A DNA stretch of 62,542 nucleotides, counting the filler, from Methanobacteriota archaeon (GTDB lineage Archaea; JACRDV01): NCBI GenBank assembly GCA_024860865.1. It is 9 parts of 9 records of this genome, joined end to end, with 100 filler letters (N's around TTAATTAATTAA, not from the genome) between each part and the next. Parts side by side here need not be neighbours in the genome. Positions count along the whole stretch, not along the records: positions 8,520 to 19,478 come from JACRDV010000115.1; 8 more parts are not named here. One strand, written 5' to 3'. The position numbers were made by a program, and so were the translations under genes. Position 1 is the first letter of the stretch. Each line of letters begins with the position of its first letter. Below, piece after piece: positions 8,420-55,136 of the stretch. Under the pieces are notes generated by a model that saw nothing but the letters and a program-made list of their open reading frames with translations, did not search any database and was not told where the DNA came from.

Positions 8420-8519
8420 NNNNNNNNNNNNNNNNNNNNNNNNNNNNNNNNNNNNNNNNNNNNTTAATTAATTAANNNNNNNNNNNNNNNNNNNNNNNNN
8501 NNNNNNNNNNNNNNNNNNN
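8420..8519. other. Artificial contig linker (also 19479-19578, 25229-25328, 33831-33930, 37677-37776, 43497-43596, 52493-52592, 57974-58073)
   Basis: Identical 100-nt N-run/TTAATTAATTAA/N-run spacers with stops in all frames; genes broken on both sides. Confidence 0.98.
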
Positions 8520-8521
8520 CC

Positions 8522-8647
8522 AGAATTTCAGATGATGATGTTAAACTTGTAGCTGAGCAAGCAAAAGTCACTGAAGAACAAGCTAGGAAGGCACTTGAAC
8601 AGACAAATGGAGATTTAGCAGCTGCAATATTGCTTTTGCAAAAGTAG
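8522..8647 (+). CDS. nac: Nascent polypeptide-associated complex protein, C-terminal UBA part (partial)
   Basis: Manual translation [38 protein letters not shown]. Confidence 0.85.
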
Positions 8648-8675
8648 ATTTACTATATAATAAATAATTATAATT

Positions 8676-9422
8676 ATGTTTAGAACAGCTGAAATGCGAA
8701 AAGTCTGGATCTTTGTTGATATGGAGAACGTTGATAAAGTAACTCGTGCTTTGCATAAGTTTGGTTCTATTCAACTTATTGATATTTCAAAAAAATATGA
8801 AAAGCTAGAGATTAAGCCTATCTATCGAAGGTTAGCAATATGCGCAGAGCTGTTAGGGCAAATAGATGAAATGCTAAATCTCTTTCCAAAAAAAGAACCA
8901 ATTTTAAAGAGATTATTTGGAATCGGAGAGAGCAGATATCCGGTTACAAGGGAAGAAGTCGAACAAACAACTGCAGATGCATTTGGTTTAGTAAGAAATG
9001 CAAGAGATGATATTTTCAAATCCAAAAGTAAGCTACTTCGAATTGAAGATAATATTTTGCAGATAGTTAAACTAAAAGAACTTTTGACTACTTTTAAAAC
9101 AGAGGTTCAACCAATTTTTACAGAAATAGCTGAGATTGCAAGCCTAGAGGAAGAGAGCGAGAAGTCAATAGCTGAAGCTCAAAAAGAAGCTGAAAAAATT
9201 ATTTCTGAAGCCGAATTGTTTGCGCAGCAGCATATTGAAAAAGTTGAGAAAGAAACACATAAACAAGTAGATAAAACTGCCAAAGAAGCAAAAGAAAAAG
9301 CCGAACTTGAAGCCAATAAGCTCATTCAGCAAGTTCAATCCGAAATACAAAGGCTCAAAGAGACTAGAGGTAGCCAGCTCCCCAAAGCGGTTGATTTAAT
9401 CGTAGAAGAGTGCGGGGGTTAG
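8676..9422 (+). CDS. Fusion of A/V-ATPase subunit I N-terminal fragment and subunit H(G)-like coiled coil
   Basis: MFRTAEMRKV..LHKFGSIQLID is the subunit I N-terminus; aa ~147-248 is an E/A/K coil ending KAVDLIVE, like AhaH. Confidence 0.7.
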   Translation: MFRTAEMRKVWIFVDMENVDKVTRALHKFGSIQLIDISKKYEKLEIKPIYRRLAICAELLGQIDEMLNLFPKKEPILKRLFGIGESRYPVTREEVEQTTADAFGLVRNARDDIFKSKSKLLRIEDNILQIVKLKELLTTFKTEVQPIFTEIAEIASLEEESEKSIAEAQKEAEKIISEAELFAQQHIEKVEKETHKQVDKTAKEAKEKAELEANKLIQQVQSEIQRLKETRGSQLPKAVDLIVEECGG

Positions 9423-9423
9423 A

Positions 9424-10902
9424 ATGGCTCTTAGATTCATAACATGTCTAGTTGCAACAGAAAAATTTAATAAATTATCAAAAATAGTCGAAGATTCATC
9501 TAAAAAACGTGCTACAGTTTTAAGTGCACATATCTCCCCTAAAATTACTTTCGGCGTAGTTGTTGTTGTAGAAGACTATTTGGAGAAAGTCCTTCTCGCT
9601 TTAACGCAATTTGGAGTTAGAATTGTAGGTGTAATGGCGCTTAGCGTCGATGAGATAATTGCTCAATTAGATCGTTGCCTTTTAGATCTAAGTGAAGGAA
9701 AAGAAGAAGCATTAAAAGAAGTTGATGAACTCCCTGAAAAATGGCGCAAACAACTTTTAATTCTGAAAGACCAGTTATTAATTGAAGCTGAGCGATTAAA
9801 TGCTTATTCTCATTTTGGAAAAAGTGGCAATGAAGTTGTGGTCCATGGATGGGCCCCTGCGAAAGAAATTGGTAAGCTGACAAATCTTATAAATGAAGAA
9901 ACAAAGGGCACAGCCACAATCAGAGTTGCGATTCCCACTGAACTAGAAAAACCGCCAACTTTATTGGATAATCCAAGAATTTTTAAACCCTTTGAAAGGT
10001 TAATAGAAGTTTTTGCTTTGCCATTTTACCGAGAATTTGATCCGACTATTATTTTGGCAATTACTTTTACAATTTTTTTTGGGGTTATGGTCTCTGATGT
10101 GCTTTACGGGGCTTTAATTAGTTTCTTTGGAGTTGTACTAGCTTATAAAATTGGAAGGTTTGATAAATATCTACATGACCTTGGATTAATTCTCATCGGA
10201 GTTGGAATGTCCTCAATCATATTTGGTTTTTTAATAGGATCGGTCGTAGGCGGGCTAATTGTCCCAAAATGGAGTTTAATAAAGTTAACGCCAATAAATA
10301 TTCTATTATTTTTTGGGCTTGGTTTTTTATTTGGTGTTTTTCATATAAGCATAGGAATTTTAATTGCCCTTTGGAAAAATGTTAAGCAGAAGCTTTACTT
10401 GGCTGCTTTTACTGAGCAAGGAGTTTCTTTGCTTATCATATTGAGCTTGCTACTTATTGGAGCTGGATTAAATTTACCAAAATACCATTGGTTGATGGAT
10501 TTTGGGCCAATTTTTATTAAAATAGGGATGGCTCTTTTTGGAGCTTGTGTTGTTATAGCTATTGTTACATTTAAATTTGAAAGGGTAACTGGAATTATTG
10601 AAATTTTCGCGAGGGTGGTTTCATACTCCCGTTTAGTTGCAATTGCAATTTCTGGTGCTATGATAGCACATGCGATAACACTACTTGCACTTAAATTGAT
10701 GGCTTTATCGCTAATTGGTGTTATACTCGGTATTTTTGCAATGGTCATCGGTCATTTTTTGAATTGTGCTTTAGTAATAGTTGCCGCATTTATTCATTCA
10801 CTCAGGCTCGAATATGTTGAATTCTTTGGAAGGTTTTTCGAAACTTGGGGAAAAAAGTTTTCTCCGTTTAGAGTTGAGAGACAATTTACTGTTATCAGTT
10901 GA
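9424..10902 (+). CDS. atpI: A/V-ATPase subunit I, distal and membrane part (split gene)
   Basis: GWAP, PPTLLDNP, EFDPT, SYSRL (essential Arg), HSLRLEYVEFFGRFF. Confidence 0.88.
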   Translation: MALRFITCLVATEKFNKLSKIVEDSSKKRATVLSAHISPKITFGVVVVVEDYLEKVLLALTQFGVRIVGVMALSVDEIIAQLDRCLLDLSEGKEEALKEVDELPEKWRKQLLILKDQLLIEAERLNAYSHFGKSGNEVVVHGWAPAKEIGKLTNLINEETKGTATIRVAIPTELEKPPTLLDNPRIFKPFERLIEVFALPFYREFDPTIILAITFTIFFGVMVSDVLYGALISFFGVVLAYKIGRFDKYLHDLGLILIGVGMSSIIFGFLIGSVVGGLIVPKWSLIKLTPINILLFFGLGFLFGVFHISIGILIALWKNVKQKLYLAAFTEQGVSLLIILSLLLIGAGLNLPKYHWLMDFGPIFIKIGMALFGACVVIAIVTFKFERVTGIIEIFARVVSYSRLVAIAISGAMIAHAITLLALKLMALSLIGVILGIFAMVIGHFLNCALVIVAAFIHSLRLEYVEFFGRFFETWGKKFSPFRVERQFTVIS

Positions 10903-10916
10903 AATTATTCTAAACC

Positions 10917-11348
10917 TCAAGTCAACAACGTAAAAACATATTGAGTTGTAGTTGGAAGTTCTTTTCTAAGTTTCCTAATATCCGGCCGATATATGAAAAC
11001 TTTGTCTCCATTTGGCTTAACTCCAAGGATTTTGTTCACTAATTTACATTCCTCTTCTCCACGAATTCTTGCAATTCCAGTTCCAAACTCTGTTGGTCCA
11101 AGCTCAATGTAAATAGGCAGTCTCAATTTGTTGTGACAGTAGGTCGGTAGCAAAGAAGAGAGTTTTCTTAACTCTTCTTTTATAAATCTATGAGTGGATC
11201 CATCGCGACAAACTATTGATGGCTTCTCCTCTTTTAAAAGTTCAGCTAAGGTCTTCCTTTCCCGTGGCAGATGTTTGTTCAAAGCTTGAATCTGTTTTGC
11301 CAAAAGCTTGGACTCAATATCTTCGAAAGGAGTTCTCATTATTCTCAA
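10917..11348 (-). CDS. DUF61 family protein
   Basis: LNKHLP..RKTLAELL.E..P, LRLPI, LPTTTQY. Confidence 0.8.
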   Translation of the reverse strand: MRIMRTPFEDIESKLLAKQIQALNKHLPRERKTLAELLKEEKPSIVCRDGSTHRFIKEELRKLSSLLPTYCHNKLRLPIYIELGPTEFGTGIARIRGEEECKLVNKILGVKPNGDKVFIYRPDIRKLRKELPTTTQYVFTLLT

Positions 11349-11385
11349 TTAAAATCTGATAAAAAATACTAAAAATAGTTAAACT

Positions 11386-11769
11386 TTACAAAATTTCAAT
11401 TGGCAATATTGTTATAACTCCAACTAGCTCATTCTGCTTAATTTGCCCATCCCCACTAGCCACAAATAGTACATGATCAACACTTCTTTCAAACTCAATT
11501 GGAGTGACTATTTCCTCGCTAACAGCAAGCATATGTCCGAGTCTATGCCGAGAGTATGAACAAGGCAAAATTATACTGCTTTCTGGAATTTTGATTTTTT
11601 TAATTTTAACCCGCTTAACTTCGCCTGTTTTAAATTCTTTGTTCTCATCTGAAATTACACTGTGTATGTTCGCTTCAACACCAGCTATCTTAATCCGTAA
11701 TATGTCTTTTCTAATTTCTATTGGTTTAACACCTTTTCCTCTTCTAATAATCCAAACATCTTCTCTCAA
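11386..11769 (-). CDS. DUF22 family protein
   Basis: [11 protein letters not shown] motif, position after atpD. Confidence 0.7.
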
Positions 11770-12425
11770 GCTGGTGCCTCTGTTACTTCTCTAGCTGCAA
11801 GAATAGATTTGATTCTTTTAAGCCTAAAGAAATTTTCTCGCTCCATTTCATCCAACCGCATCTCGATATATTTAGTGGTATTCTCAAGTCTTGGAATAAC
11901 TATATACTCAAGGGCATTAACCCTCCGCTTCGTTTTTTCAATTTCTTCAGCCAATAGCTTAACTGAAGTTTCAATTTCAGCTAGCTTTAATATAGGTTCA
12001 ATTGAATCTTCAAATTTATCAGTCGCTTCATCGAGTTTTGCTGAGGTTTCGCGCAGTTCATAACCACGTTCAATAACAGTTTTCTTTTCTCGTTGAGCCT
12101 CGATTAGTGGGACTAATACACCCATTATGTTCTTATTCGCAAAATCAACGCCAACCGACTCTTCCACGCTCATTGCGGCTTCTTGAGTAGTAAGAACGCC
12201 CATTACACTTTCTGCGATAATTAAGTGCTCGAAGGCTTCTCTAAGTAGTCTTTCCACATTGCCTCTGATTCCCCTAGCTTCCTCTATAACATCAAAAAGT
12301 TCCATAACAAGGGCATCTCGTTTTTCTTTGAGCAATTTATGCCCTTTTCTAGCTAATTTAACCCGCTCTTTTAATTTTAAGAGTTCCATCCTAGTTGGAT
12401 TTACGCCTTCGATTAGCTCTGCCAC
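11766..12425 (-). CDS. atpD: A-type ATP synthase subunit D
   Basis: [30 protein letters not shown]. Confidence 0.97.
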
Positions 12426-15418
12426 TAAGCTTTGCCTCTATACGCAGGGTGATACTTCTTAATATATTTAACATCAATTCGTTTAAGCTCGCCCTCTGGC
12501 AACATAGATAAAATGTCCCAACCGATGTCCAGTGTTCTTTCAATGGATCGATCTTCATCTTTTCCTTGGTTTACAAATTCTCGTTCAAAGCGATCAGCAA
12601 GCTCTAAATATTTCTTGTCTTTTTCAGTAAGCGCTTCTTCACCAACTACTGCAACCAAATCTCGGAGGTCTCTTCCTTCTGCATAGGCAGAATAGAGCTG
12701 GTCTGAAACTCCCCTATGTTCTTCTCTAGTTTTGCCAGCACCTATGCCTTTAGCCATCAACCTGGACAGAGAAGGCAAGACATCTATCGGTGGATAAATT
12801 CCTCTCCTATGCAGTTCTCTACTCAACACTATTTGACCCTCACAGTTTGAAGAAATTATTCCATTTTCTATGACAAAATTACTTGTGGCAGGAATTGTAA
12901 TATCATAAACATAGCTACTTGATTCAGGAATTTCTTTTATTGAAACTATCTTATCTAAGATAAAGTAGTCTGATACCAACTTTTCCAAAATTTTGATGTA
13001 ATTATCTTTAACATTTACAACAGTCTCTATTGCATCTAACCATTTTCTAACTTTAAACTTAGAAGCTTCTTTCTTGTCATCTTCAAATTGTTTCAAATAA
13101 TTAGAATTATTTTCTATCTGTGAAAGTGATAAATTATACTTTTCTCTAATTTTTTTAATTAAAGTTTTGCACATTTTAGGTGCGACATCAAATCTTGTAT
13201 GTTTAATTTCTTTTTTAATTAACTCTTTCAAAAGTTTTTGCTTGTTAGAATGATTTACGTAGCTGAAGATATGTTTTGCCAAAATTTTAGCATAACCACT
13301 TGATATGGTTAATTCTTGAATTTTATTTCCTTTGCTGAAACTACCGGTTGATTGCTTCCCAACGTTAATAGTACTTGGAATTGCCAATCGTTTTAATAGT
13401 TGTTGCAATCTTTTTACTATTGTTACATCTTTTTCGCTTTTAAGTTTTTTTCTATATCTTATTCTATTAAATTCTAAATCACAATTCCCGTCCCCATCGA
13501 AATAACCGGCAAGAAAAGCTGTAATAAGATTTTCTTCAAGCTCAAACAAACCTTTAAAGTCTTTTGTTAAACCAAAATATTTAGCAATTTCTATTATAAA
13601 ATCACTAGTGGCATTTAATGTTGTAACATCATTTTCTGTCATCTTTTTCCATAAGGCTATTCCTGGAAATAACTTTTTGAATAATTCAGAGTATGCATTT
13701 AACAGATTTGAATCTTTGTTAGAGAAACTAACATGGTAACCCTTTTCAATGATTGAGCCATCTGACGTCAAAAGACCAAATAAATACATAAGATTTTCAT
13801 TTACATATTTCCAGTTTAATATGATCTTCCTTCCATTTCTTACACAAATAGCTAAGATATAATCTAAAATTTTATTTTTAGGAATTGTTAAGACGTCCAT
13901 TAATTTTTGGATTTCGTGTAAAGTAATAACATTCTTTGGATGTGTAATTCTCACATAACTTATGTTGAGTAACTTACATGCTTCTTTTATAGTTCCGAAT
14001 TTCATTTTCAATTCCTTTCTCAAATATTCTAAAAAATCTCTTTTTAAAGTTAGATAGAAAATCTTATCAGAATGGCCTATGATATCAAGTATATCTGTCC
14101 TTTTGGACTCAGCAACTTCTAATTTACTTAGAGAGAATATTCTATCATCAACCTTACAATTAGAAACAGGTATCATTTTTGGGCCTTCTAATGTATCAAC
14201 TAAAAATTTGTGATCCGGGGTAGCCTTTACGGTTATGCCCGAATCTAATGTCATTTTCAATAACTTTTTTGAATTGTTAGCTAGTTTCTGAGAGTCTGAA
14301 ACTTTGGAAAAAATTGGTTTTCCATTAACTGACAAAACTTTGATTTCTTTGTTAGTATTAAAGTCATTAACCAAATCGCTTATTTTAATTAGCTCACCTT
14401 TATTAACTATAACTTCTGTATCACCGTGTAAACAAATATAACCAGTTAAGTCTGGAATTGGATGAGTAATATCATCGTCAGGCATAGATAGAATTGGCAT
14501 TTGAGTGATCGAACCCTTTTTGCCGATAATTTTTCCAGCACGTTCATAGATTGTAGCCAAATCTGTGTACAGGTATCCTGGATAACCCCTTCTCCCGGGA
14601 ACTTCTTCACGCGCCGCTGAGATTTCACGAAGGCTTTCGCAATAATTCGTAAGATCGCTTAGAATAACTAAAACATGCATATCTTTTTCGTAAGCAAGAA
14701 ATTCAGCTGCTGTTAAAGCCATTCGCGGCGTAATCAATCGCTCAATTGCTGGATCGTCTGCTAGATTCAAAAACATAACTACTCGTTCAAGCGCACCTGT
14801 TCTCTCAAAATCTTTTTTAAAGAAACTCGCCTCTTCGTGAGTTATACCCATTGCACAAAAAACTACGGAAAAGACTTCTTCTTCACCTAAAACTTTTGCT
14901 TGCCGGGCAATTTGCGCAGCCACTTCATTATGAGGCAAGCCTGCTCCAGAAAATAGGGGTAATTTTTGGCCTCTCACTAGCGTATTCATGCCATCGATTG
15001 TTGAAATGCCAGTTTGAATAAATTCAGCTGGATATTTTCTAGCTGATGGATTTATGGGAGCTCCATGAATATCTCTTGTCTCCTCTGGAATAATTTTTGG
15101 ACCGCCATCAATTGGATTGCCTGTGCCGTCAAAAATTCTGCCCAACATCTCATCTGATACTGCTAGTTTTACTGTTTCGCCAGTGAACCTAACCTTTGTC
15201 TTGCTGGTATCAATTCCAGCAGTTCCTTCGAAAACTTGAATGGCAGCTAAATCTTTTCTTGCATCTAAGACCTGCCCCCGTCTCTCTTCACCATCTGGTG
15301 TTTCAATTTCAACTAATTCTCCATAGCTTACTCCTTCAACACCTCTTACTATCATTAATGGTCCGCTTACTTCAGTAACAGTAGTATATTCTCTAACTTT
15401 TATAGTAACCAAATTCAT
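12425..15418 (-). CDS. atpB: A-type ATP synthase subunit B with intein (467 aa mature)
   Basis: [32 protein letters not shown]|intein|CEGQIVL. Confidence 0.96.
12845..14434 (-). mobile_element. Intein (530 aa) with LAGLIDADG endonuclease in AtpB
   Basis: Starts CLHGDT, block [17 protein letters not shown] and [10 protein letters not shown], ends VYDITI..IISSN followed by Cys. Confidence 0.93.
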
Positions 15419-15420
15419 CC

Positions 15421-18400
15421 CTACTCTGCAGCAGTTTTTTCAATTAGCGTATCAAATTGAGTGCTTAATTTCTGGTGAATTTCTTTAATTTTCGCCTCAG
15501 CTTCATTTTCAGGTATTGTTTTCATCCTAGCAATTTCATCCTTAATTGGTAGCTTAACTATATCAGAAATTTGAACTCCTTTGTTAATAGCTTCTACACC
15601 TTTCTCATAGAACATCAAAATTGTTTTTAACATTGATATCTGCTTTTTAGCTGAGCAATATGTATCGACTGGATGGTAAGCATTTTGCTGTAAAAAGTCT
15701 TCTCTAATCATTCGCGCTCCTTCAAGAGTAATTCTCTCTCTCTCAGGCAATGCATCTGGACCAACTAGCATCACAATTTCTTTTAATTCTGATTCTTTCT
15801 GCAATATCTCCATAGCCCTTCCGCGGAGCATTCTCCAATCTTCTTTAACTGCTTCTTTCCACCAACTCTCAACTGTATCCAGATAAAGTGAATAACTTGT
15901 CAACCAATTGATGGCCGGGAAATGTCTGCGATCAGCAAGTGAGGAGTCCAATGCCCAGAAACACTTTGTAATCCTTAGAGTGCCTTGAGTAACTGGCTCT
16001 GAAAAATCACCTCCAGGAGGCGAAACTGCGCCAACAACTGTGACTGAACCTATCCTTTCATTCGAACCAAGGGTGACAACACGCCCAGCGCGTTCATAAA
16101 AATCAGCTAATCTTGAAGCCAAATAAGCCGGATAACCTTCTTCGCCTGGCATCTCTTCGAGTCTGCCAGATATCTCTCTCATTGCCTCAGCCCAACGGGA
16201 AGTTGAATCTGCCATCAAAGCAACATCATAGCCCATATCTCTGAAGTACTCACAGATAGTGATTGCAGTATAAACGCTTGCCTCCCTAGCAGCTACTGGC
16301 ATGTTTGAAGTGTTTGCGATTAAAGAGGTGCGATGCATCAGTGGTTTTCCACTTTTAGGATCGACCAATTCAGGGAACTCCTCTAGAACTTCTGTCATTT
16401 CATTTCCACGTTCACCGCAGCCGACGTAAACGATTACATCAGCATCTGCCCACCTGGCTAGCTGGTGCTGTGAAACTGTATTATGCAGAATCATCGGAGT
16501 ATTTCCACCTACAAAATTATGAGTTTGTGGAACAGTTATATCATAAACGTCAGACTCTACATCAATAACTTTAATTTCTATTGTTTCATCGCAGAAAACA
16601 TAATCCAAAGATTGTGCAAAATCTAATAAATGTTCCAATCGCACTTGCTTGACTATTCTTTGAAATGTTTGTACAGTTAAATTCTGGTCAACATAATAGC
16701 CCGCTGTTGAAATCCCTTCTTTTTCTAAAACAAAAGGTTTCGTATTTCCAAGTATCTTTTTAAACAAGGCGCTAGTCATCGGAACTATATCTGTCGAATT
16801 AAAGCAGAATTCTTTGTTAAAGAAAGGATGTATTTTAATAACTTCACGTGCTGTAATAAAAATCCTATAATAAGTTCGTCCCTTTACTATTCTTTCTCTT
16901 ATTCTAAATAAAACCCCTGTCCTTAAAAGCATATATGAAATACCATCTTTCATGTCATTGCTTGCAGTAGAAATTTCAATTTCATCATCAGTTAGGCTTC
17001 CATCGCCGCTTATATAAGATATTAAAAATGCTTTTATCACTGAATTAGGAGATGTTAATAAAATGTCCGGAGGCTTAACATTTCTTGATTTTTTCTTTTT
17101 TGGGTATCCTAACGAAACTAGTAGGTCAACGAGCGCTTTACTATTTACCTTAATAGCCTCAACTGTCCTTTCCCAACTATCTTTAGAGTCAAGATTAAAT
17201 AATTTTTTGAGTAGATAACTTACTCTGTCTCTTAGTTTCTTATTCCTATTAAAGAAAACTACAGTCCCCCTGCCTCTTACCATACCATCCGACATTAAGA
17301 AACCTAATAATGCTGCTAATTCTTCTGTCAGGTATTTTGGAACAGTAATGGGTTTAGATTGCCTTTCCGCTTTTATAAGTTGGAATTCTATTTCAGTTTT
17401 TGTTAGATTCTCTAGTTTTCTTATAAACGATATATGTGGCAGATTTTTCTTGGAATAATAACCTAGCAAATTATGGTAGGATACATCTAATAGTTTTGCA
17501 AATTCTTTTTTTGTTATTTTGTTCTTGTTGGAGATATATTCAGAAATTATTATACGCATCTTCTCGAGTGCATCACTATCAGCAATTCTACAATCGAAAT
17601 TAATATCAATATTAGAGTAGTCAGAATTTAATTCAAGTTTTCGGGGCGAAATTATAAAATCTCCTACTTTTAAGTTTTCTGCCTCTTTCTCTACAATTTT
17701 CAAATTGTCGCCTAAAGAAAAAAGCTTGTGTAATGGAGTTAACTTTATTTTTCTACCAGATCTGGTTTTTATTTCAATAAGTCTAGATGTTTTTCCCTTA
17801 TAGACCCGGGTGGCATATGTAGGGGATATCTTTTTACCATCAAAGGTATAAACAAGCAAAGGCTTTAAAAGTCTTATTACAGTTTCGTATTCCGAAATTT
17901 TTACAACTTCTCCTACAGCTGAATCAAAAACATCTTTGATTGTCTTTAATTGATTATTAGCTAAAATTTTTGTGTCGCCAGTGACACATTTTCCGCTGCC
18001 GAATGGGCCAGGTATTGCAGCCGTTCCACCCTTTGCTACTGGGAAAAATGTATCATAAATGCGTTGGCCAGTAACTAAAGGAATACTTGGGTCGAGTTTT
18101 CTTCTAAATGGTCTACCTCTTCTCACTGGCCAATGGTGCATCATTTGAACTTCTTTTTTTCCAGTTGTAGTGCTAATCACTGCTACAGTATCCTCGACAG
18201 TGTAGTCACCCTTTTCCGCGATCTCAACTATCTTTCCTGAGATTCCGGGTGGTACAAGAATTCGATGTTCAACAATTTCTGTTTCTTGAACTTTGCCTAA
18301 AAAATCTCCTTCTTGAATCTTATCACCTTTTTTAACTAAGGGCACAAAAGTCCACTTTTTATTTCGATCAAGTGCAGGCGCTTCAACTCCACGTTTTATA

Positions 18401-18705
18401 AAATTCCCAGATTTCAACTTAATTACTTCAAGCGGCCTTTGGATTCCATCAAAAATTCTATTCAATATACCAGGACCGAGCTCAACGGAAAGCGGTCGTC
18501 CAGTTCCCAGTACCTCTTCGCCTGGTTTGATTCCAACTGTTTCTTCATAAACCTGAATGCTCGCCCTATCTTCAACTAACTCAATTATTTCACCAATTAG
18601 TTTTTGCTCGCCAACCCTCACCATCTCGAACATTTTTGCTCCTCTCATTCCTTCAGCTACAACCAATGGACCAGTTATTCTCACTATTTTTCCTTTTACT
18701 ACCAA
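15421..18705 (-). CDS. atpA: A-type ATP synthase subunit A with intein (591 aa mature)
   Basis: GPFGSGK|intein|[29 protein letters not shown]. Confidence 0.97.
16480..17988 (-). mobile_element. Intein (503 aa) with LAGLIDADG endonuclease in the AtpA P-loop (VMA-b-type site)
   Basis: [41 protein letters not shown] followed by Thr. Confidence 0.95.
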
Positions 18706-19056
18706 TTATTCCTCCCTCCCTCGTTCTCCTAGGATTATTTCTATACCAATAGCCCTCTTAACGAGCTTTTGAAGAGGCGTAACCTCTCTCCGCATTGGAC
18801 CTTTTTTATCTGGAATTTCAACAATAATTGGAACTACTTCTTCTTTTTTTGCTTCAAAATCATCAATCATTTTCCTCAACTGTTCAGCAATTCTTTCAGT
18901 TATTACAATTATATTGATATCTTTTCTTTGAAAAAGAGATTTTAAATTCTTTGCTGCTTCTTCAGCTGATCCAACTTCATAGGTTTCTTTAATTCCAGCT
19001 AATCTAAATCCAACAATAGTGTCTTGATCGCCAATTACAGCAACTTTCGCGCTCAA
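18706..19056 (-). CDS. atpF: A-type ATP synthase subunit F
   Basis: AVIGDQDTIVGFRLAGI, EIPDK, KRAIG. Confidence 0.95.
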   Translation of the reverse strand: MSAKVAVIGDQDTIVGFRLAGIKETYEVGSAEEAAKNLKSLFQRKDINIIVITERIAEQLRKMIDDFEAKKEEVVPIIVEIPDKKGPMRREVTPLQKLVKRAIGIEIILGERGREE

Positions 19057-19147
19057 AATGACCCGCTCTTTAAATTAAATAGAATTTGATCTTGTTTGAT
19101 TTGGAAATTCCTTATTGTTAAAGAAATAAACCTCCAATTGCCAAAGA

Positions 19148-19478
19148 TTATATAATCAATTCTCTAATTTTTTCAGGTGAAAGTTTTTCTTCCTTTGCTG
19201 CAAGAATAGTTTTGACTGATTTAACTTCATTTTCTTTAACAATAAAAAACCCTATTATTGGGTTGGGTCCAAAAACTTGAAGTCTTGATACCGTTTTTGC
19301 AGTTCTTATTAAAAACTGCTCTAAAGCCCTTTCAAAAGGCAATAGCGACCCTGTTTTTTCGTACTCGGTTCTGACAGCATTCAAAATTTCAATATAAGAT
19401 GTACCTTCCAGTCTACTCAGTACTGTTTCGATATTTTCAGCCTCAATTAATTCTTCCAACCTTTTACCGACTAATTCA
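19148..19478 (-). CDS. atpC: A-type ATP synthase subunit C, 3' part (partial)
   Basis: LEGTSY, FGPNPIIGF..KENEV; operon position. Confidence 0.85.
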
Positions 19479-19579
19479 NNNNNNNNNNNNNNNNNNNNNN
19501 NNNNNNNNNNNNNNNNNNNNNNTTAATTAATTAANNNNNNNNNNNNNNNNNNNNNNNNNNNNNNNNNNNNNNNNNNNNA

Positions 19580-28859: not shown

Positions 28860-29249
28860 ATGCCAAATGAAATTTTAAAAAATCAAATAATACACAAAAT
28901 TAAGAATTTCTTATATAATCGAGATGAAATTACTTTCGCTTACCTATTCGGTTCTATTTCAGAGAACAATAAATTCAACGATGTAGACTTAGCAATTTAT
29001 GCTAACAAGGAAGTAGACAAATGGTATGATATCAAGCTCTCTCGAGAGTTGGAGAAGGAGATTAAATTCCCAGTGGATATAGTATTTCTAAACAAAGCTT
29101 CTGATTCCCTGACATACCGTGCTTCTAAGGGCATACTTATTAAAAACACTGATGATGATTTTAGGGTTAATTTTATTACAAAAGTATGGAAGAAGTATTT
29201 TGATTTTAGACCAAAACTTTATGAATTTGCTAAAGAGGCTACAACATGA
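28860..29249 (+). CDS. MNT nucleotidyltransferase antitoxin
   Basis: YLFGS..NDVDLAI..VDIV. Confidence 0.9.
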   Translation: MPNEILKNQIIHKIKNFLYNRDEITFAYLFGSISENNKFNDVDLAIYANKEVDKWYDIKLSRELEKEIKFPVDIVFLNKASDSLTYRASKGILIKNTDDDFRVNFITKVWKKYFDFRPKLYEFAKEATT

Positions 29250-29668
29250 GAGTTAACAAAGATAAACTAGCCTCGATAACTGGAGAAGTGAAGAAAGCGC
29301 TTGGAGTTTTAAAGGAATACCAGGTAGAAGATGAAGAAACTCTCATACAAGATTTAAAAGCCTTAGGGGCAATAAAATATTACTTTATTCTAGCAATTGA
29401 AGCGTGCGTTGATATTTGCAATCATATTATAGCCAAGGAATATTCTGAAGCGCCTGAGAGTTATGCTGATTGTTTTAGAATTCTTAGAGAAAAAGGGATT
29501 ATTTCAAATGAGCTCGCTGAGAATTTAATGAATATGGCTAAGTTTAGAAATTTACTCGTTCATCTTTACTCTAAAGTAGATAATAAGAGACTATTTAGTA
29601 TATTGAAGGAAAATCTATCTGATATTGAAAAATATCTCGCTGAAATAAACCAGAAATATCTTAAATAA
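29246..29668 (+). CDS. HEPN (DUF86) RNase toxin
   Basis: FRNLLVHLY (RX4HXY); overlaps MNT by ATGA. Confidence 0.92.
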   Translation: MRVNKDKLASITGEVKKALGVLKEYQVEDEETLIQDLKALGAIKYYFILAIEACVDICNHIIAKEYSEAPESYADCFRILREKGIISNELAENLMNMAKFRNLLVHLYSKVDNKRLFSILKENLSDIEKYLAEINQKYLK

Positions 29669-44360: not shown

Positions 44361-44786
44361 TTATTTTGCCTCAACTGGGACTTCTTTAGGCTCTAATTTA
44401 TCATAAATAAAGGCTCTGAATTTAGTTTCATATTTTTGAAGCGAAATAATTAACCATACTTCCTTTGGCCAGAGTTTCATGGCTTCTATGTCATAGCCAC
44501 TTGGATATGCCGCAAACTCAGGATGGGAGTGATAAAATCCAACTAGCTCTAAACCCTCTTTATCAGCCATCGAGACAGCATTATAGATTTCGCGAGGATC
44601 GATGTCAAAGCGAGTTGTCGATTCTAATCTATTTTTAGCATGAACAACCTTTTTTACAAGGATTTCTCCATCATTTTCTTTCCCGAAAAGAAAACCACAG
44701 CACTCAATTGGAAAAGTCTTTTTGGCTGCGTCTTCCAGTTCTTTGAGCAACTCTATGGGTACAACAAGCTTTTGGCTCATTTTCAA
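44361..44786 (-). CDS. JAB/MPN+ metalloprotease (Mec/desampylase-like)
   Basis: P.ECCG.L.G, YHSHP..AYPS.YD. Confidence 0.92.
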   Translation of the reverse strand: MKMSQKLVVPIELLKELEDAAKKTFPIECCGFLFGKENDGEILVKKVVHAKNRLESTTRFDIDPREIYNAVSMADKEGLELVGFYHSHPEFAAYPSGYDIEAMKLWPKEVWLIISLQKYETKFRAFIYDKLEPKEVPVEAK

Positions 44787-44906
44787 TTTCCCTTCACTGA
44801 TTTGCTAAAAAGTATTAACTCCCGTTCAGAGTTATTTAAATATACTCTAAATTTAATGAATATAAATTTTAGAGTTTCGTTACGTAAAATAGTCAGAAAG
44901 ATTCTC

Positions 44907-45860
44907 ATGATAACGGTAGGATTTTCCCCGCACTGGATTGAAGCATTGGAGCACATGGAAAAGGAAATGAAAAAACATGATGTAATAGTGCTTGAAGAAC
45001 CTCAGAACCTTGCCTTCGAAAACATGTTAAAGGAAAAGATCAGCACAGATGAGTATTTGGGTTACTTATTCAATGATACTTATAATCTTTCTCCAGCATT
45101 TCCGAGATTCGCGAGAGAAATGTGCGAAATTTTAAGGAAGCTATACAAAGAAGGAAAGATAATCGATCAAGAAGATCCTTACTATCTTGTTCTTGAGGGG
45201 ATATACCGAACAATTGATACAAGAAAAGAAAACTCATCTTCTGGGGAAATCATCCAAGAAATTCTAAGAGACCCTCAAATGAAAAAAGTATATTTAAGTG
45301 AAAGTAGGGCGCAGGGCTTTCTTTTAAATTATTACAACAAGGTTCTAAGTGGTAGTTTTAATGATGTAGTAAAAAATGTAAAAGAGTTTGCAAAGGCAGA
45401 TGCTGAGAGGATAAAATTAAGATTAAAAATGAGAGCAGAATCTATTTCGAATAAAATAAAAAAAGGCAAATACAAAGGAAGTATCTATGTCGAAGCAGGA
45501 GGCATTCACCTTCCATTACTTTTATACCTAAGAGAAAATCTTGGAGATGCTTTTAAGATCAAGCCAATTTTTCTCCTTGAAGAGCCAACCAGGGAAATGA
45601 CAGCGGGCAGATTTCGTCATATCCTCCCTCCTGGAGATGTATTAACGCTGAGATATATGTGGGGAAAGATAAATGAAGAGCGAGATGATCTGCTTGCTGC
45701 GCGCAGCATAATACGGATTATGCTGTTAGAAAGATGGAAAGAAAAAGCGCCCTCTCAATTGAAGTTTCCGCATTTGAAAGAGGAAACAAAGTTAATTAAA
45801 TCCGTTGGGAAATTGAGCCTCAAAGATTGTGAAAACTTATTCAAACAAATTAGAAAATAA
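44907..45860 (+). CDS. Hypothetical protein, TraB/Tiki-like motifs
   Basis: GFSPH..VIVLEEP..YVEAG.IH; start reassigned to ATG 44907. Confidence 0.55.
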   Translation: MITVGFSPHWIEALEHMEKEMKKHDVIVLEEPQNLAFENMLKEKISTDEYLGYLFNDTYNLSPAFPRFAREMCEILRKLYKEGKIIDQEDPYYLVLEGIYRTIDTRKENSSSGEIIQEILRDPQMKKVYLSESRAQGFLLNYYNKVLSGSFNDVVKNVKEFAKADAERIKLRLKMRAESISNKIKKGKYKGSIYVEAGGIHLPLLLYLRENLGDAFKIKPIFLLEEPTREMTAGRFRHILPPGDVLTLRYMWGKINEERDDLLAARSIIRIMLLERWKEKAPSQLKFPHLKEETKLIKSVGKLSLKDCENLFKQIRK

Positions 45861-46028
45861 GTTAACCTTCTAAAAAATTTTGTATTTTTAAATTTCTTAG
45901 TGGAATTTGCCAAAGTTGACAGCTAGCTTATCCATAATGCGCGTAATCATGCGCACTCAATCGGTATTCCTTTGCCCCTAACAATTACCTCATCATAAAC
46001 TTTGGTTAAGCCCGCGTGAATACTTCTA

Positions 46029-46769
46029 TCAATTTCTGGACTTCTTTTTCTCATCTATTATTCTAATGAGTTCATTAACATTCATGAAAGCATCAGCGAT
46101 TATTCTCTCTTTTTCCTCTTTACCAGAAGGATTTAAGAAATTTGCAACCCACGTTGGGCCTTCTGCTGTTATGCTGCTGAACTTACTCCTTACGTTATCT
46201 ATGCCTTCCGCAATCAATTTATCGTCTACATATGGAGCAATCTCAGCAGCTACGTCCTCTGGGCCACCTTTATAATTCGCAGTTATAGAATAAACGTCAT
46301 AGGCGTCTTTTTCCTTGTATCTCTCCTTTAATGCGAATCCTTTCGTAGTTATACACCCAACTACGTCAGCGATTTTAATCCCTACTAAAGTTTCTCCGTC
46401 TCCGGGGAGTATTCCTATCAATTCGTATTCTAAATAATGTTCAAATGCTATATCGCACCCACGCATGGTTCTTGCGAGCAAATCTCGCTGTACTTGTTTA
46501 TGTCTTCGCTCTCTCTCAAATTGGATACTCAAAAAATCTACAGAGATATTATACTCTTTATTATCAGCTGGTGAGATTATTTTTCTGTCGAAACTGTAGG
46601 GGATTATATTCCCCAACCTATCTTTTCTCGGCACATACCCGCGATCTTTGATTATCTCTACTATTGTTGCATAGGCAACGCTGTCAACTATGTCGGGGTT
46701 AACAGCGATATCTATATCAATTGAGACCATTTTCACTATTTCTATTATTTTCACCGTACGGTGAAACAT
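46029..46769 (-). pseudogene. AbiEii-like nucleotidyltransferase, 5'-truncated
   Basis: SIDIDI, VDFL, K...L..R.KEKDAYD; N-terminal GG motif absent. Confidence 0.6.
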
Positions 46770-46924
46770 ATAAATTATCGAAAGTCTTCAATTTAAGTGA
46801 GAGTTTTACAAAGGAATTTTGCCCAGCCCTCCTGTTGCAGGGTATGAACTAAAAAAACAAGTTTTTGCGGTTGTATTGTTGCATCTAAAGAGGGGTTGTG
46901 GTGGTTTTTCTGCTTCGGCTATCA

Positions 46925-47047
46925 CTAGTTGAGACTCTCGTGAGCCCTGGAGCCGAATAAAACTAGCTTTCCATCAACAGCGATAACTTTTCCGTGGGTC
47001 TGTGTTGCTGGAATGAGCACGTTTAGAAACTTTTCATTTTCTTCCAT
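46925..47047 (-). pseudogene. Phospholipase D (HKD) domain remnant
   Basis: 40-aa frame containing THGKVIAVDGKLVLFGS. Confidence 0.5.
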
Positions 47048-47178
47048 ATCAACTATTTTCCATCTGTAGTTAGACTCGTAAAAGTGGGGATTAACCTTAG
47101 GTTTTAAGCAGCAAAGTAAAATTTGAAAATAAACAAAAAATCGACTTATGTGTTTTTGAATGTTTTACAACTAGATAG

Positions 47179-48444
47179 CTAGGCAGAATTCCTTCGCCAA
47201 ATAACTCCGGCAGGCTTTAATTCATCAAGTAATTTTTTAAAAGCTTCAAAAGATGGTTCAATTGTTGGAGGCTTTATTAATTTCTCAGCAATGGTTTCTT
47301 GTGTTTTTAGACCATTACCTGTGATGTAAAGAACTATTTTTTCATCCCGATCGATTTCTCCTTCTTCTGCTAATTTCTTAAGAGTCGCTACTACAACTCC
47401 GCCAGCTGGCTCAGTGAATATTCCTTCAGTTTTAGCCAAGAGCTCAATTGCTCCCAAGGTTTCTTCATCTGTTGAAGCTCTACCAGTCCCGCCGGTATTT
47501 TTCATTGTTTGGATAGCATAATAACCATCAGCAGGGTCTCCGATAGCTAGACTTTTGCAGATAGTGTTAGGGTGTTCAACCGGTATTATCTCATCAGTTT
47601 TGTTCAACAGAGCTTGAATAATTGGGGAACAACCATTTGGTTGAGCTCCAGAAATTTTTACATGGTTTTCTTTGATCAGACCAACTCGCTCAAACTCTTG
47701 AAAACCTCTTCCAATAGAATGTAAAAGTGCGCCGCTAGCCATGGGTACAATAACATGGTCTGGAGGATTCCATCCTAGTTGTTCACAAACCTCAAAAGCC
47801 AGCGTTTTAGAGCCTTCAACATAATATGGACGGATGTTAATGTTAGCAAAACCAATGTTGCTAGTGACAGCCAACTCTGTAGCTAGTCTGTTGACTTGAT
47901 CGTATGTTCCTTTAACAGCTACAATAATGGCCCCATAGGCCAGTGTTTGTGTTATCTTCGTAATCTCAAGACCCTCTGGAACGAAAACAAAACAAGGTAG
48001 CCCCGCCTTCGCGGCATGAGCTGCTAAAGCACCTGCAAGATTGCCAGTTGATGCACATCCTACTGCAGGCATACCAAATTCTAAGGCTTTAGTGACAGCA
48101 ACGCTTGCAGGCCTATCCTTAAAAGAATAGCTTGGGTTAACCGCATCATTTTTCAAGTAAACTTCTTTTAGACCCAATTCTTTTGCGAGTTTATCCGCTT
48201 TCAGAAGCGGAGTAAACCCTGCTCCAATATCTACTATTTTGTCTGTATCGTCAATTGGAAGCAATTCGATGTATCGCCATAAAGTTGGCTTTCTTTTTTC
48301 AATTTTAGTTCGAGATATTGCGCTTGAAATTTTATCGTAATCATAAATGACATCAACTGGTCCGAAGCACAGCTGACAAGCATTCAGCACTTTTTTAGGA
48401 TAGTGCTCTTTGCATTCTCTGCATTCAAGTCCTATTGCAAACAT
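47179..48444 (-). CDS. Threonine synthase-like PLP enzyme with N-terminal zinc ribbon
   Basis: CREC..CQLC, NPSYSFKDR, CASTGN, EGSKT, ITGNGLKT; start ATG 48444. Confidence 0.9.
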   Translation of the reverse strand: MFAIGLECRECKEHYPKKVLNACQLCFGPVDVIYDYDKISSAISRTKIEKRKPTLWRYIELLPIDDTDKIVDIGAGFTPLLKADKLAKELGLKEVYLKNDAVNPSYSFKDRPASVAVTKALEFGMPAVGCASTGNLAGALAAHAAKAGLPCFVFVPEGLEITKITQTLAYGAIIVAVKGTYDQVNRLATELAVTSNIGFANINIRPYYVEGSKTLAFEVCEQLGWNPPDHVIVPMASGALLHSIGRGFQEFERVGLIKENHVKISGAQPNGCSPIIQALLNKTDEIIPVEHPNTICKSLAIGDPADGYYAIQTMKNTGGTGRASTDEETLGAIELLAKTEGIFTEPAGGVVVATLKKLAEEGEIDRDEKIVLYITGNGLKTQETIAEKLIKPPTIEPSFEAFKKLLDELKPAGVIWRRNSA

Positions 48445-48445
48445 G

Positions 48446-48979
48446 TTATTTCTTCCACCAGCAGACTTCTCCTCCAAACTCAACCAAGCGCCTTCTGAGG
48501 TGGACATCCTTGAACCTCCCCCAAAGCCTTGGATCGATACGATCCAAAGCGACTTTAGTTTTAATACCTCGTTCTAAAGTGAATTTGCAATCTAAACTGC
48601 AAGGAATATAACCATAAGAACCGAGAAAGAATTCGTTAGGAATGTGCTTGCCACTTTGAAGGGCCTTTATCTCTTCTTTTGATATTTTTTCGCTGAGCTT
48701 TGAACCCTGCTCAAGAAAAGCTTTTACACAGCACTGTGGAATTCCAAACCAATCGCCTCTAGCTTTAGTATCTTCAGCTAAAGCTTCAAGATCACCCTTA
48801 ACTTTAGCGACTAAATATTTCCCATTTTTATGTTTGTAAATGAGACCAAGATTTGTTATCAAAACCTCAAGATCTTTATCAGCATGTCTATTGATTTCAG
48901 CACCTTTTTTTATTCCCTCCTTTACCATAACTAAGTCTACAACTACACCGGGTTGTTCTTCAACCAAACTTTTTGCCAT
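48446..48979 (-). CDS. DUF483-like Cys-rich protein
   Basis: G.WFGIPQCCV.AF and YIPCS.DC motifs. Confidence 0.65.
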   Translation of the reverse strand: MAKSLVEEQPGVVVDLVMVKEGIKKGAEINRHADKDLEVLITNLGLIYKHKNGKYLVAKVKGDLEALAEDTKARGDWFGIPQCCVKAFLEQGSKLSEKISKEEIKALQSGKHIPNEFFLGSYGYIPCSLDCKFTLERGIKTKVALDRIDPRLWGRFKDVHLRRRLVEFGGEVCWWKK

Positions 48980-49018
48980 TTAGTGCGCTCCAATTTTTTC
49001 ATTTTAAATTTAAAATTT

Positions 49019-49258
49019 TCAAGTACTTTCTTTAACTTTGATCCAAATGCCCCAAAGTTTTTCACTTTCTTTCTCAACCTTTAGGACCTCATGCCCGAGG
49101 GTTTTTATACTTCGTGGAATATTTCTGGAAGCTGGCTCATAATCAACAATCACTTTTAAAATCTGATTTGGTTCCATCTCTTCTACTTGCAGTTTTGTTT
49201 TAACATAAGTGTAAGGGCAAACATCTCCTCTTAAATCGAGTTCGACATCAGGTTTCAT
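49019..49258 (-). CDS. tusA: TusA/SirA sulfur carrier
   Basis: LDLRGDVCPYTYVKTK. Confidence 0.9.
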   Translation of the reverse strand: MKPDVELDLRGDVCPYTYVKTKLQVEEMEPNQILKVIVDYEPASRNIPRSIKTLGHEVLKVEKESEKLWGIWIKVKEST

Positions 49259-49268
49259 TAAAAGCCTC

Positions 49269-50075
49269 CTAAATTACACATACATGGCCGTATTCTAATT
49301 GTGAAACATCAGTGATAGTAGGATTCTCTCCACACACAGGGCATTTCGGATCTTTATTGATCTGAAATTCGTTAAAAGCCATGTTAATTGCATCATAAAT
49401 CAATAATCTACCTTTGAGAAGAGTTCCTATTTTCAATATGTACTTTAGAACTTCAGTCGATTGTATTAGCGCAATAGTGCCCGGGACAGTTCCCAAAACT
49501 CCGCCTTCTTGGCAGGATGGAATCAATCCTTCTGGGGGCTGTTCCGGGAAAATACATCTATAGCAAGGTGTTTCGCCAGGTATAATTGTGGTGACTTGTC
49601 CTTCAAACCTAAAGACACTACCGTGGAATATTGGCTTCTTTTGAATTACACATGCATCATTTATTAAAAACCTAGTTGGAAAATTATCAGACCCATCGAG
49701 AACGGCATCATAATCTTTTATTATATCAAAAACATTTTTGGGAGTGACCATAGTTTGAAAAGTTTCAACTTTCACATTTGGATTTAAACTTTCTATGAAT
49801 TCTTTGGCAGATTCAGTTTTTGGTTTTCCAATATCTTTAGTTAAATGAATGACCTGCCTTTGGAGATTACTTACATCAACTTTATCAAAGTCTATGACTC
49901 CAAGTGTTCCAATGCCGGCAGCTGCAAGATATATTAACGCTGGTGCACCAAGTCCGCCGGCACCAACTACTAAAATTTTGGCGCTCCTTAATTTCTTCTG
50001 ACCCTTACCTCCAACTTCATTCAAAATTATTTGGCGACTGTATCTCTTAATCTCTTCTTCTGTGAATCCAAGCAT
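49269..50075 (-). CDS. E1-like MoeB/ThiF adenylyltransferase (UbaA type, no rhodanese)
   Basis: RYSRQI, GAGGLG, SNLQRQ, PCYRC, SCQEGG, CPVC. Confidence 0.95.
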   Translation of the reverse strand: MLGFTEEEIKRYSRQIILNEVGGKGQKKLRSAKILVVGAGGLGAPALIYLAAAGIGTLGVIDFDKVDVSNLQRQVIHLTKDIGKPKTESAKEFIESLNPNVKVETFQTMVTPKNVFDIIKDYDAVLDGSDNFPTRFLINDACVIQKKPIFHGSVFRFEGQVTTIIPGETPCYRCIFPEQPPEGLIPSCQEGGVLGTVPGTIALIQSTEVLKYILKIGTLLKGRLLIYDAINMAFNEFQINKDPKCPVCGENPTITDVSQLEYGHVCVI

Positions 50076-50104
50076 TGAACTCCCTTATAAAAAATTTTAG
50101 ATTA

Positions 50105-50386
50105 TTAACCTCCAGAAACAGCTGGTAAGATTGAAACTTCATCATTATCTTTAAGCGGCGTTTTTAAACCACCAGTAAGCCGAGTATCTTTTCCATTTAC
50201 AAAAACGTTTATAAACCTGCGAACTTTACCAGTTTTCTGGTCAATTAATCTTTCTTTGAAATCGTTTCCATATTTTGCAATGAGTTCTTCTACTAGCTGC
50301 TCGACCGTTGTTGCGTTTATATCGGTTTCTTTCTCTTGATTTGTTACAGCAGTCAAAACTGACGAGAAGCGCACTTTTACCGCCAG
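50105..50386 (-). CDS. MoaD/ThiS ubiquitin-like sulfur carrier (SAMP/CysO-like)
   Basis: INVFVNG.D, C-terminal PAVSGG; RBS GGAGGG points to a CTG start at 50386. Confidence 0.93.
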   Translation of the reverse strand: MAVKVRFSSVLTAVTNQEKETDINATTVEQLVEELIAKYGNDFKERLIDQKTGKVRRFINVFVNGKDTRLTGGLKTPLKDNDEVSILPAVSGG

Positions 50387-55028: not shown

Positions 55029-55136
55029 AATATCCCTCCGAAAACTTTGAAATCAGTTTCTTTAAGTACTCTTTTTTCTTTAAGACATTATAATTTCTAA
55101 TAACTAAATAAAAAGATTGTGCTAGTTGGGTTAATA

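Follow-up and report, generated by a model that had tools for sequence, protein, structure and literature searches.

The closest described counterpart of the locus reported here is the canonical stator of A/V-type ATPases, as in the Thermus thermophilus V/A-ATPase (6qum, 6r0z). There, a free subunit H is encoded just upstream of a single-chain subunit I. The subdomains of subunit I are connected there by a coiled coil kinked at L119 and A246, and the distal subdomain, which includes L144, R196, A197, and E201, binds the N-terminal region of an EG stalk (PMC7367684). The locus compared with it here consists of two adjacent open reading frames (ORFs), ORF1 and ORF2, in a 62,542-base stretch of DNA (the window) from a Methanobacteriota archaeon (GCA_024860865.1). 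They share with the canonical stator the same two protein families, an adjacent gene pair and a membrane domain with the essential Arg. The dumbbell-shaped soluble arm and the distal lobe, to which an E-G(H) stalk binds by its N-terminal region, are also alike. The difference is that subunit I here is in two chains, cut between the outgoing helix and the distal lobe, and that H is joined to the first of them. Taken together, ORF1 and ORF2 are probably subunit I (a) of the A-type ATP synthase of this archaeon. Judging from the profile matches below, the subunit I gene is cut where the outgoing helix of the collar hairpin ends, and the cut holds a whole subunit H gene. The parts belong to known families, subunit I by sequence and fold and subunit H by sequence, while the I-H fusion with a split subunit I appears to be new.

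The elongated b of N-ATPases is counted among the natural variants of the F-type peripheral stalk. Fusions of stalk subunits are also described for F-type ATP synthases, namely b-delta and delta-alpha fusions (preprint 10.64898/2026.10.01.756066) and a mycobacterial stalk-subunit fusion (PMC8617483). In these fusions, a stator-stalk subunit is likewise covalently linked to a part that it normally binds non-covalently. However, they join the stalk at its top (F1) end and leave the genes unsplit, whereas here an A-type stalk would be joined to the collar by its membrane-proximal end, and the gene of the collar is in two parts. No split subunit I or I-H fusion was found in the literature searched, although the supplementary operon figures of preprint 10.64898/2026.10.01.756066 might show one.

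The initial annotation described ORF1 as the N-terminus of subunit I followed by about 100 residues resembling subunit H, and both the NCBIfam models and our own profiles of the two subunits agree with it. In the NCBIfam model of subunit I, NF004428, positions 1-148 of 680 are matched by ORF1 residues 1-137 (E 3.1e-6, 25.6 bits), and positions 171-677 by ORF2 residues 7-490 (E 2.2e-86). ORF2 reaches 80.5 bits on Pfam V_ATPase_I (PF01496), above the cut-off of 30.7, and is under every NCBIfam equivalog cut-off for subunit I (best 290.5 vs 766). Our own subunit I profile has 641 positions and was built from 36 full-length proteins found with ORF2. On this profile, ORF1 residues 1 to about 147 correspond to positions 1-149 (35.1 bits), and ORF2 residues 3-491 to positions 150-638 (E 1.5e-117). 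The cut falls between the adjacent positions 149 and 150, so that no subunit I material is lost or duplicated. The N-terminus of ORF1, MFRTAEMRKV, agrees with canonical subunit I N-termini. At the other end, S400, R403, R461, L462, and E466 of the motifs SYSRL and HSLRLEYVEFF, which are invariant across a 40-row alignment, are all kept in ORF2. Arg403 of SYSRL is encoded at 10630-10632. Subunit I is not a single polypeptide here: a stop codon (9420-9422) and a change of frame divide the protein, and the same is seen in the independent contig X2 described below.

The rest of ORF1 corresponds to subunit H. Residues 151-229 match positions 1-79 of 85 of the AhaH model TIGR02926 (E 1.5e-6, 28.3 bits), although the cut-off of 48.5 is not reached, and V-ATPase_G_2 gives 18.9 bits on the tail, below its cut-off of 28. 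Our own H profile was made from 44 atpH ORFs that immediately precede atpI in loci retrieved with AtpB and not with ORF1. ORF1 residues 147-245 match its positions 4-102, the whole length of subunit H, at 59.9 bits. The 103-residue tail alone scores 63.0 bits, while 1000 shuffled tails score at most 8.6 and the reversed tail 22.7. Both ends of subunit H are kept, with the N-terminal motif IAEIASLEEE and the C-terminal KAVDLIVEE, and so is Glu158, which is invariant in the H alignment. The tail is about 100 residues long and matched to the subunit H family from end to end by our profile, and it is predicted to be all-helical, as a helix of high predicted local distance difference test (pLDDT) in the AlphaFold2 (AF2) model. 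The subunit I profile stops where this match starts, and the C-terminal half of ORF1 does not score as an ordinary subunit I coil. This H is not free-standing, because 146 residues of subunit I precede it. Past the I/H junction, no in-frame ATG, GTG, or TTG is near the start of the H homology, and the first is a TTG at Leu181. Internal initiation of H would therefore need the ATT at 9114.

The position of the cut can be placed on the Thermus structure. ORF2 residues 44/45 align with residues 178/179 of Thermus thermophilus subunit I, which puts the start of ORF2, and the break, near Thermus residue 135. This is between the kink at L119 and the distal residue L144, so the cut falls where the outgoing helix finishes, immediately ahead of the first strand of the distal lobe. 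With a mean pLDDT of 84.8, the AF2 model of ORF2 has an alpha/beta unit at 3-71, a long helix at 75-130, a small alpha/beta part at 132-197, and then membrane helices. ORF2 had been described as starting 1 nt after the ORF1 stop and supplying the distal lobe and the membrane domain with the Arg of SYxRL; the coordinates, Arg403 and these elements bear this out. The best Foldseek matches of the ORF2 model are the Thermus subunit I chains 6r0z_N, 6ly9_N, and 6qum_N, with probability 1.00, and E is about 1e-11 to 4e-12 for 6r0z_N and 6qum_N. The AF2 model of ORF1 (mean pLDDT 74.2) contains one helix at 92-247, and the mean pLDDT of 10-residue blocks is at least 86 for 121-230. The fold of ORF1 was predicted with the alignment A4, as the alignments A1 and A2 were discarded: in them, MAFFT had put N-terminal pieces of subunit I against the H region. 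Since A4 consists of H rows only, the first ~90 residues of the model have low confidence.

The complex of ORF2 residues 1-200 with ORF1 was predicted with a score of 0.61, while the best of three controls scored 0.00. The 0.61 mark is reached by 58 of 80 solved complexes and by two of 110 mismatched pairs. The runs share at least 88% of contacts, with a partner pLDDT of at least 68. The predicted interface is between ORF1 5-144 and ORF2 75-179. Within it, ORF1 5-46 packs on ORF2 132-179, as the proximal lobe, and ORF1 94-144 lies along ORF2 75-130, as the hairpin. ORF1 is outside the interface after residue 144, and the H tail, residues 147-248, is free in the prediction. In the model, the two halves still look like a collar; the prediction says nothing on actual binding.

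The order at the ORF1/ORF2 boundary is GGGGGT, TAG, one base, and ATG. Motifs similar to a Shine-Dalgarno sequence precede 16 of the 59 ORF starts in the window. The layout suggests, on sequence grounds, translational coupling of the two ORFs. A programmed +1 frameshift at GGT-TAG-A was considered and rejected from the sequence, because the shift codon would re-pair poorly. It is also unlikely because a single chain must get from the top of the stalk back to the distal lobe without a linker. The GAGGT near the start of the H homology had been proposed as a vestigial ribosome-binding site (RBS). Statistics do not support this proposal: GAGGT is found 29 times on the + strand of the window, twice within ORF1 and ORF2, and the copy at the junction is indistinguishable from chance.

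Independent contigs contain the same arrangement. ORF1 and ORF2 are each in a 90% cluster with a protein of a 13,082-nt Logan contig from run X2, which is from a different study than run X1. The two proteins have the same lengths as ORF1 (248 aa) and ORF2 (492 aa); 239/248 residues are identical in the first, and the second has 97% identity. The X2 contig covers 8520-12842 with 69 differences, which is a DNA divergence of about 1.6%, and 14436-19478 with 45. Past window position 19478, it continues for 3,269 nt. The ORF1/ORF2 junction is spanned by contigs of three runs from three studies: X1 (9028-9640), X2 (8520-12842), and X3 (9233-9493). The X1 contig shows 0 differences, and X1 is possibly the source sample. 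None of the 10 indels listed for four runs is in 8676-10902. The independent contigs support the junction, and this check did not refute the architecture. The X2 contig also has a 31-letter joint of the 'opposite strands' type (9211 to 19478), which we regarded as a coincidence. Between X2 and the window, there are 9 amino-acid changes in the 248 residues of ORF1 and 13 in the 492 residues of ORF2. Among the base differences listed, at least six in ORF1 and at least eight in ORF2 are synonymous. The upper bounds of the ratio of nonsynonymous to synonymous changes (dN/dS) are 0.39 for ORF1 and 0.52 for ORF2, bounds that rest on few changes, since the base differences listed are 40 of 130.

The features of the locus are summarized in the table. 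The window consists of nine contigs of one bin, joined via N44-TTAATTAATTAA-N44 linkers at 8420..8519, 19479..19578, and six further places. Because separate contigs are joined, gene neighbourhood across the linkers is meaningless. The contig of ORF1 and ORF2 is 8520..19478, with 10,959 bases. On it, the pair is convergent to atpC(fragment)-F-A-B-D, as had been noted initially; atpC is a fragment, and the DUF22 and DUF61 genes lie in between. No ATPase subunit was found on the other eight contigs of the window in a Pfam scan of 64 ORFs (E <= 1e-5).

Features of the ORF1/ORF2 locus and its neighbours, in window coordinates
Feature	Position	Strand	Basis or remarks
3' end of a gene	TAG stop at 8645-8647		before ORF1 on contig 8520..19478
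ORF1	8676..9422	+	248 aa, TAG stop 9420-9422
ORF1 residues 1-146, N-terminal part of subunit I: half of proximal lobe and outgoing helix of collar hairpin	8676..9113	+	NF004428, own I profile, predicted contacts
GAGGT, proposed vestigial RBS	9102-9106	+	7 nt before ATT (Ile147), start of H homology
ORF1 residues 147-248 and TAG stop, complete subunit H (AhaH / V-type G) homologue, no linker	9114..9422	+	own H profile, TIGR02926, AF2 helix
GGGGGT, Shine-Dalgarno-like, inside last ORF1 codons	9414..9419	+	4 nt before ORF2 ATG
ORF2	9424..10902	+	492 aa, ATG one base after ORF1 TAG
ORF2 residues 1-72, distal alpha/beta lobe of subunit I soluble arm	9424..9639	+	own I profile from position 150; AF2 E3-11, H12-25, E30-36, E41-49, H50-62, E66-71
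ORF2 residues 75-200, hairpin return helix and second half of proximal lobe	9646..10023	+	AF2 H75-130, E132-134, E137-139, H146-159, H185-197; predicted ORF1 interface
ORF2 residues 208-492, subunit I membrane domain with SYSRL and HSLRLEYVEFF	10045..10902	+	invariant residues, Thermus fold matches
DUF61 gene	10917..11348	-	PF01886 E 7.4e-45; last gene of convergent atp cluster
DUF22 gene	11386..11769	-	PF01629 E 1.1e-18
atpD	11766..12425	-	PF01813 E 7.7e-62
atpB with intein, 997 aa	12425..15418	-	ORF; N-extein 69-80% identical to AtpB of 80 loci
atpA with intein, 1094 aa	15421..18705	-	named from sequence and operon place, not family scan
atpF	18706..19056	-	PF01990 E 6.9e-26
atpC (subunit C/d) 3' fragment, last 103 codons	19148..19478	-	PF01992 positions 242-338/339; cut by contig end

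Both catalytic-head genes, atpB and atpA, carry large inteins. The atpB intein is absent from the X2 contig, whose DNA is about 98-99% identical: a joint from 12842 to 14436 skips 1593 bases, with three letters in between. This intein is a presence/absence polymorphism between close strains. A third intein in the window is in a gene for an archaeal Hel308-type helicase (55119..57806), with Intein_splicing and PT-HINT matches. Elsewhere in the window are a nucleotidyltransferase/HepT-like pair of the toxin-antitoxin type (28860..29668) and a cluster of JAB, ThiF, ThiS, and TusA genes (44364..50374) of the sulfur-carrier or SAMP-like kind. The thermosome on another contig of the window has at most 73% identity to anything else, and its named best matches are 'Euryarchaeota archaeon', Hadarchaeum/Hadarchaeota, Syntropharchaeia, and Thermococcus. 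The nearest relatives of AtpB, AtpD, and the DUF61 protein are from Hydrothermarchaeota, Methanobacteriota, and Hadarchaeota metagenome-assembled genomes (MAGs). By these similarities, the host is a poorly sampled archaeon of euryarchaeal grade.

The layout of the window has one counterpart among the relatives. In locus L011 of a Hadarchaeota MAG (G001), the gene order is K-K-K-E-C-(F)-A-B-D-DUF61-x, followed by a convergent subunit I gene (661 aa) with an H gene (104 aa) upstream of it. This subunit I is the only one found by ORF2 in G001. L011 has the layout of the window, except that H-I takes the place of ORF1 and ORF2, and this suggests that the pair is the orthologous principal H-I locus in rearranged form. 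In the phylum of G001, H is directly upstream of I in 26 of 30 subunit I loci. A DUF61 homologue after atpD is seen in L011 as well as in loci L002 and L003 of Hydrothermarchaeota-like MAGs. The latter two (L002 624..5741, L003 7249..12028) belong to MAGs with two separate ATPase clusters: one reads H-E-(F)-A-B-D and has DUF61 close by, and the other is I-K-C. Among the genomes closest to the window in AtpB, AtpD, and DUF61, the order of the atp operon is fluid.

Two Hydrothermarchaeota genomes carry an orphan short subunit I, G067:C19 (L119 1507..3159, 550 aa) and G068:C93 (L120 8659..10212, 517 aa), and hold in addition a canonical subunit I of 681-685 aa in an I-K-C cluster. The short proteins resemble the present case in having a remodelled soluble arm. 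The AtpB N-extein is 79-80% identical, and AtpD and DUF61 are among the closest to those of the window. They differ in being single chains that lack profile positions ~127-232 (the distal lobe), in being away from the atp genes, and in having neither a neighbouring nor a fused H. P0031 and P0058 (ENA contigs of 6293 and 3787 nt), subunit I proteins of 450-452 aa that begin with a Met at profile position ~197 and are without the N-terminal arm up to the distal lobe, may represent a further truncated or split form.

The fusion was looked for in relatives and was not found beyond the 96-97% identical X2 twin. A word-based search with ORF1 returned ORF1 itself only (1 of 1013 candidates), and a scan of the contigs of GTDB species genomes for the architecture matched 101 pattern stretches, of which 0 were confirmed. 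With phmmer, ORF1 gave seven matches at E <= 0.001 among 1.84 billion cluster representatives: ORF1 itself, the tandem-repeat artefact P0046, one 1142-aa protein, and four free H-like proteins. The four are 106-155 aa long and are aligned to ORF1 from about 115 to 247. Three score on AhaH, and the fourth weakly on the subunit H model PRK08404 (E 0.0069). The closest free H has 38% identity, and its cluster is named Altiarchaeales/Altiarchaeota by the sources. At that library size few H proteins are seen at all, so an independent fusion in a distant lineage would escape this search. Against PDB sequences, ORF1 gave at most weak matches to F-type b (best E 0.03), and the Atlas look-alikes of ORF1, an unnamed bacterial cluster with a score of 0.92, gave no lead. 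ORF2 found 42 proteins, which have at most 33% identity save for the 97% twin. The complete ones are of 590-770 aa, and the shorter ones are from short contigs or marked partial, except P0031 (450 aa).

Subunit I and H genes of relatives were also examined directly. The AtpB N-extein retrieved 80 loci (69-80% identity). They contain 48 complete subunit I genes, each of which is one ORF of 621-724 aa, and immediately upstream of 44 of these lies an H-like ORF. Of the 66 genomes in the phylum of G001, 61 have a subunit I match, the complete frames are of about 600-776 aa, and identity is at most 37% in any listed match spanning most of ORF2. For the fusion itself, the profile A4 (H rows) was run against the genomes in the phyla of G067, G001, and G070. 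In the phylum of G067, H-type matches are in 31 of 38 genomes, all in frames of 78-143 aa; frames of 183-270 aa gave partial matches of lower strength (E 1e-6 to 8e-4), which we take as putative subunit E. H matches occur in 50 of the 66 genomes in the phylum of G001, and their frames measure 101-146 aa except for G049, G051, and G062. On inspection, the candidates G049, whose frame has 235 aa, and G051, whose frame has 717 aa and an internal TAG, were canonical, and in G062 the match is in a 225-aa frame at the start of a contig. For the phylum of G070, an H match was obtained in 301 of 329 genomes; the 150 matches listed are all in frames of 104-142 aa, and 154 more are beyond that listing. 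Every relative that could be read has a free H and an unsplit subunit I. Based on these searches, the I-H fusion architecture appears to be known from one narrow uncultured lineage.

The arrangement most likely works in the following way. ORF1, with the N-terminal part of subunit I and H, and ORF2 would be made from one coupled message. The two proteins would reassemble the collar in trans, via the antiparallel hairpin and the proximal lobe to which both contribute. The H helix would exit the collar beside the distal lobe, probably bending at Gln145-Pro146, and would pair with subunit E, so that the distal peripheral stalk becomes a covalent extension of the collar. A stop after H would then be needed, since the C-terminus of H would reach the top of A3B3, a long way from the distal lobe, and the chain has no linker for the return. 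As for the origin, the likeliest event is one rearrangement of an ancestral atpH-atpI pair that put the first ~146 atpI codons before atpH. Seen from the other side, atpH moved into atpI together with its 3' end and the start of atpI. The 3' end of H with its Shine-Dalgarno-like motif and ATG resembles an ordinary H-to-I junction, and is followed directly by position 150 of the subunit I profile. One rearrangement of an H-I pair would thus explain the domain order of both ORFs.

The initial annotation had proposed a stator with one stalk covalently tethered. The architecture, the position of the break, and the free H tail in the predicted complex fit this proposal, while the tether itself we infer. 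On balance, a functional stator with one stalk tethered to the collar is the favoured interpretation. The fuller version is more tentative and falls slightly short of an even chance. It holds that the only A-type ATP synthase of the lineage has a rewired stator, with a two-chain collar and the H of the distal stalk as a covalent continuation of the outgoing helix. In this version, the stalks would be inequivalent or one would be left, and the whole would result from a single cut-and-paste of atpH into atpI.

Several points weigh against a tethered principal stator. The contig ends inside atpC, so that canonical atpH and atpI (with E and K) could be upstream or elsewhere. A-type enzymes have two E-H stalks, and with the H in view in the fusion only, the second stalk would have no obvious H. 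The synteny is from the single genome G001, and the other subunit I loci of that phylum are without a convergent atpD or DUF61. In the tree of subunit I membrane domains, ORF2 is on a long unplaced branch (stem 1.43 vs a median terminal branch of 0.30, support 0.47). ORF2 scores higher on the orphan short paralogues of the two Hydrothermarchaeota genomes than on their canonical subunit I. As single-chain subunit a structures have been solved, the score of the predicted complex may reflect likeness to them, and its pass may be the memory of the model, with ORF1 folded there without an alignment. The dN/dS bounds are built on few changes. Finally, the stator is read from sequence and models, and both the pairing of the H tail with E and the expression of the ORFs are predicted.

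Some of these points favour another explanation, in which ORF1 and ORF2 are an accessory or alternative stator or A0 module, used under particular conditions or in a second enzyme, with canonical free H and unsplit I elsewhere or upstream of atpC. The usual H-I-K-E place is out of view on this contig, and canonical and orphan short subunit I coexist in the two Hydrothermarchaeota genomes, with ORF2 scoring better on the short ones. The long branch of ORF2 and its identity of at most 33-37% to all but the 97% twin are also consistent with a divergent module. However, the subunit I at the corresponding position in G001, the one relative with the same convergent layout, is the only one found there by ORF2, and in the window the pair directly adjoins the A1 genes. 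ORF1 and ORF2 retain all the invariant residues and the coupled layout, and no free H closer than that of the Altiarchaeales/Altiarchaeota cluster is among the representatives searched. We consider this explanation unlikely, though it deserves weight.

It is considerably less plausible that ORF1 and ORF2 are a decaying, non-working remnant of a rearranged atpH-atpI locus. Decay would be in line with the high divergence, with the finding of the architecture in one narrow lineage, and with the fairly frequent amino-acid changes between the two strains. Yet both ORFs are intact and of the same lengths in strains about 1.6% apart, without indels, the dN/dS upper bounds are below 1, the catalytic residues are kept, and the models are confident, with a predicted trans interface.

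That the last 100 residues of ORF1 are a Glu/Lys-rich subunit I coil or a chance look-alike is hardly credible, in spite of the missed AhaH and V-ATPase_G_2 cut-offs, the weak matches of the same stretch to F-type b, FliH, and DivIVA, and the bits kept by the reversed tail, because the subunit I profiles use ORF1 up to ~147 and resume in ORF2 at the next position with no segment missing, the independent H profile matches from end to end, including KAVDLIVEE, far above the shuffled tails, and the best library matches are the free 106-155-aa proteins that score on the H models.

The tethered stator, if true, would bear on how rotary ATPases are held together. Their peripheral stalks are thought to act as elastic tethers docked non-covalently, and in V-ATPases the docking of the stalks is the basis of regulated disassembly. 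The lineage would be a natural test of how far the joint between collar and stalk needs reversibility or flexibility. It would likewise test whether the two stalks must be equivalent, and how the soluble arm of subunit a folds. The locus would also be a clean example of gene fission forced by the insertion of a domain, as the C-terminal end of H is a long way from the point at which subunit I must resume. Annotation can easily pass over ORF1 or label it 'hypothetical', and ORF2 can be mistaken for a truncated subunit I.

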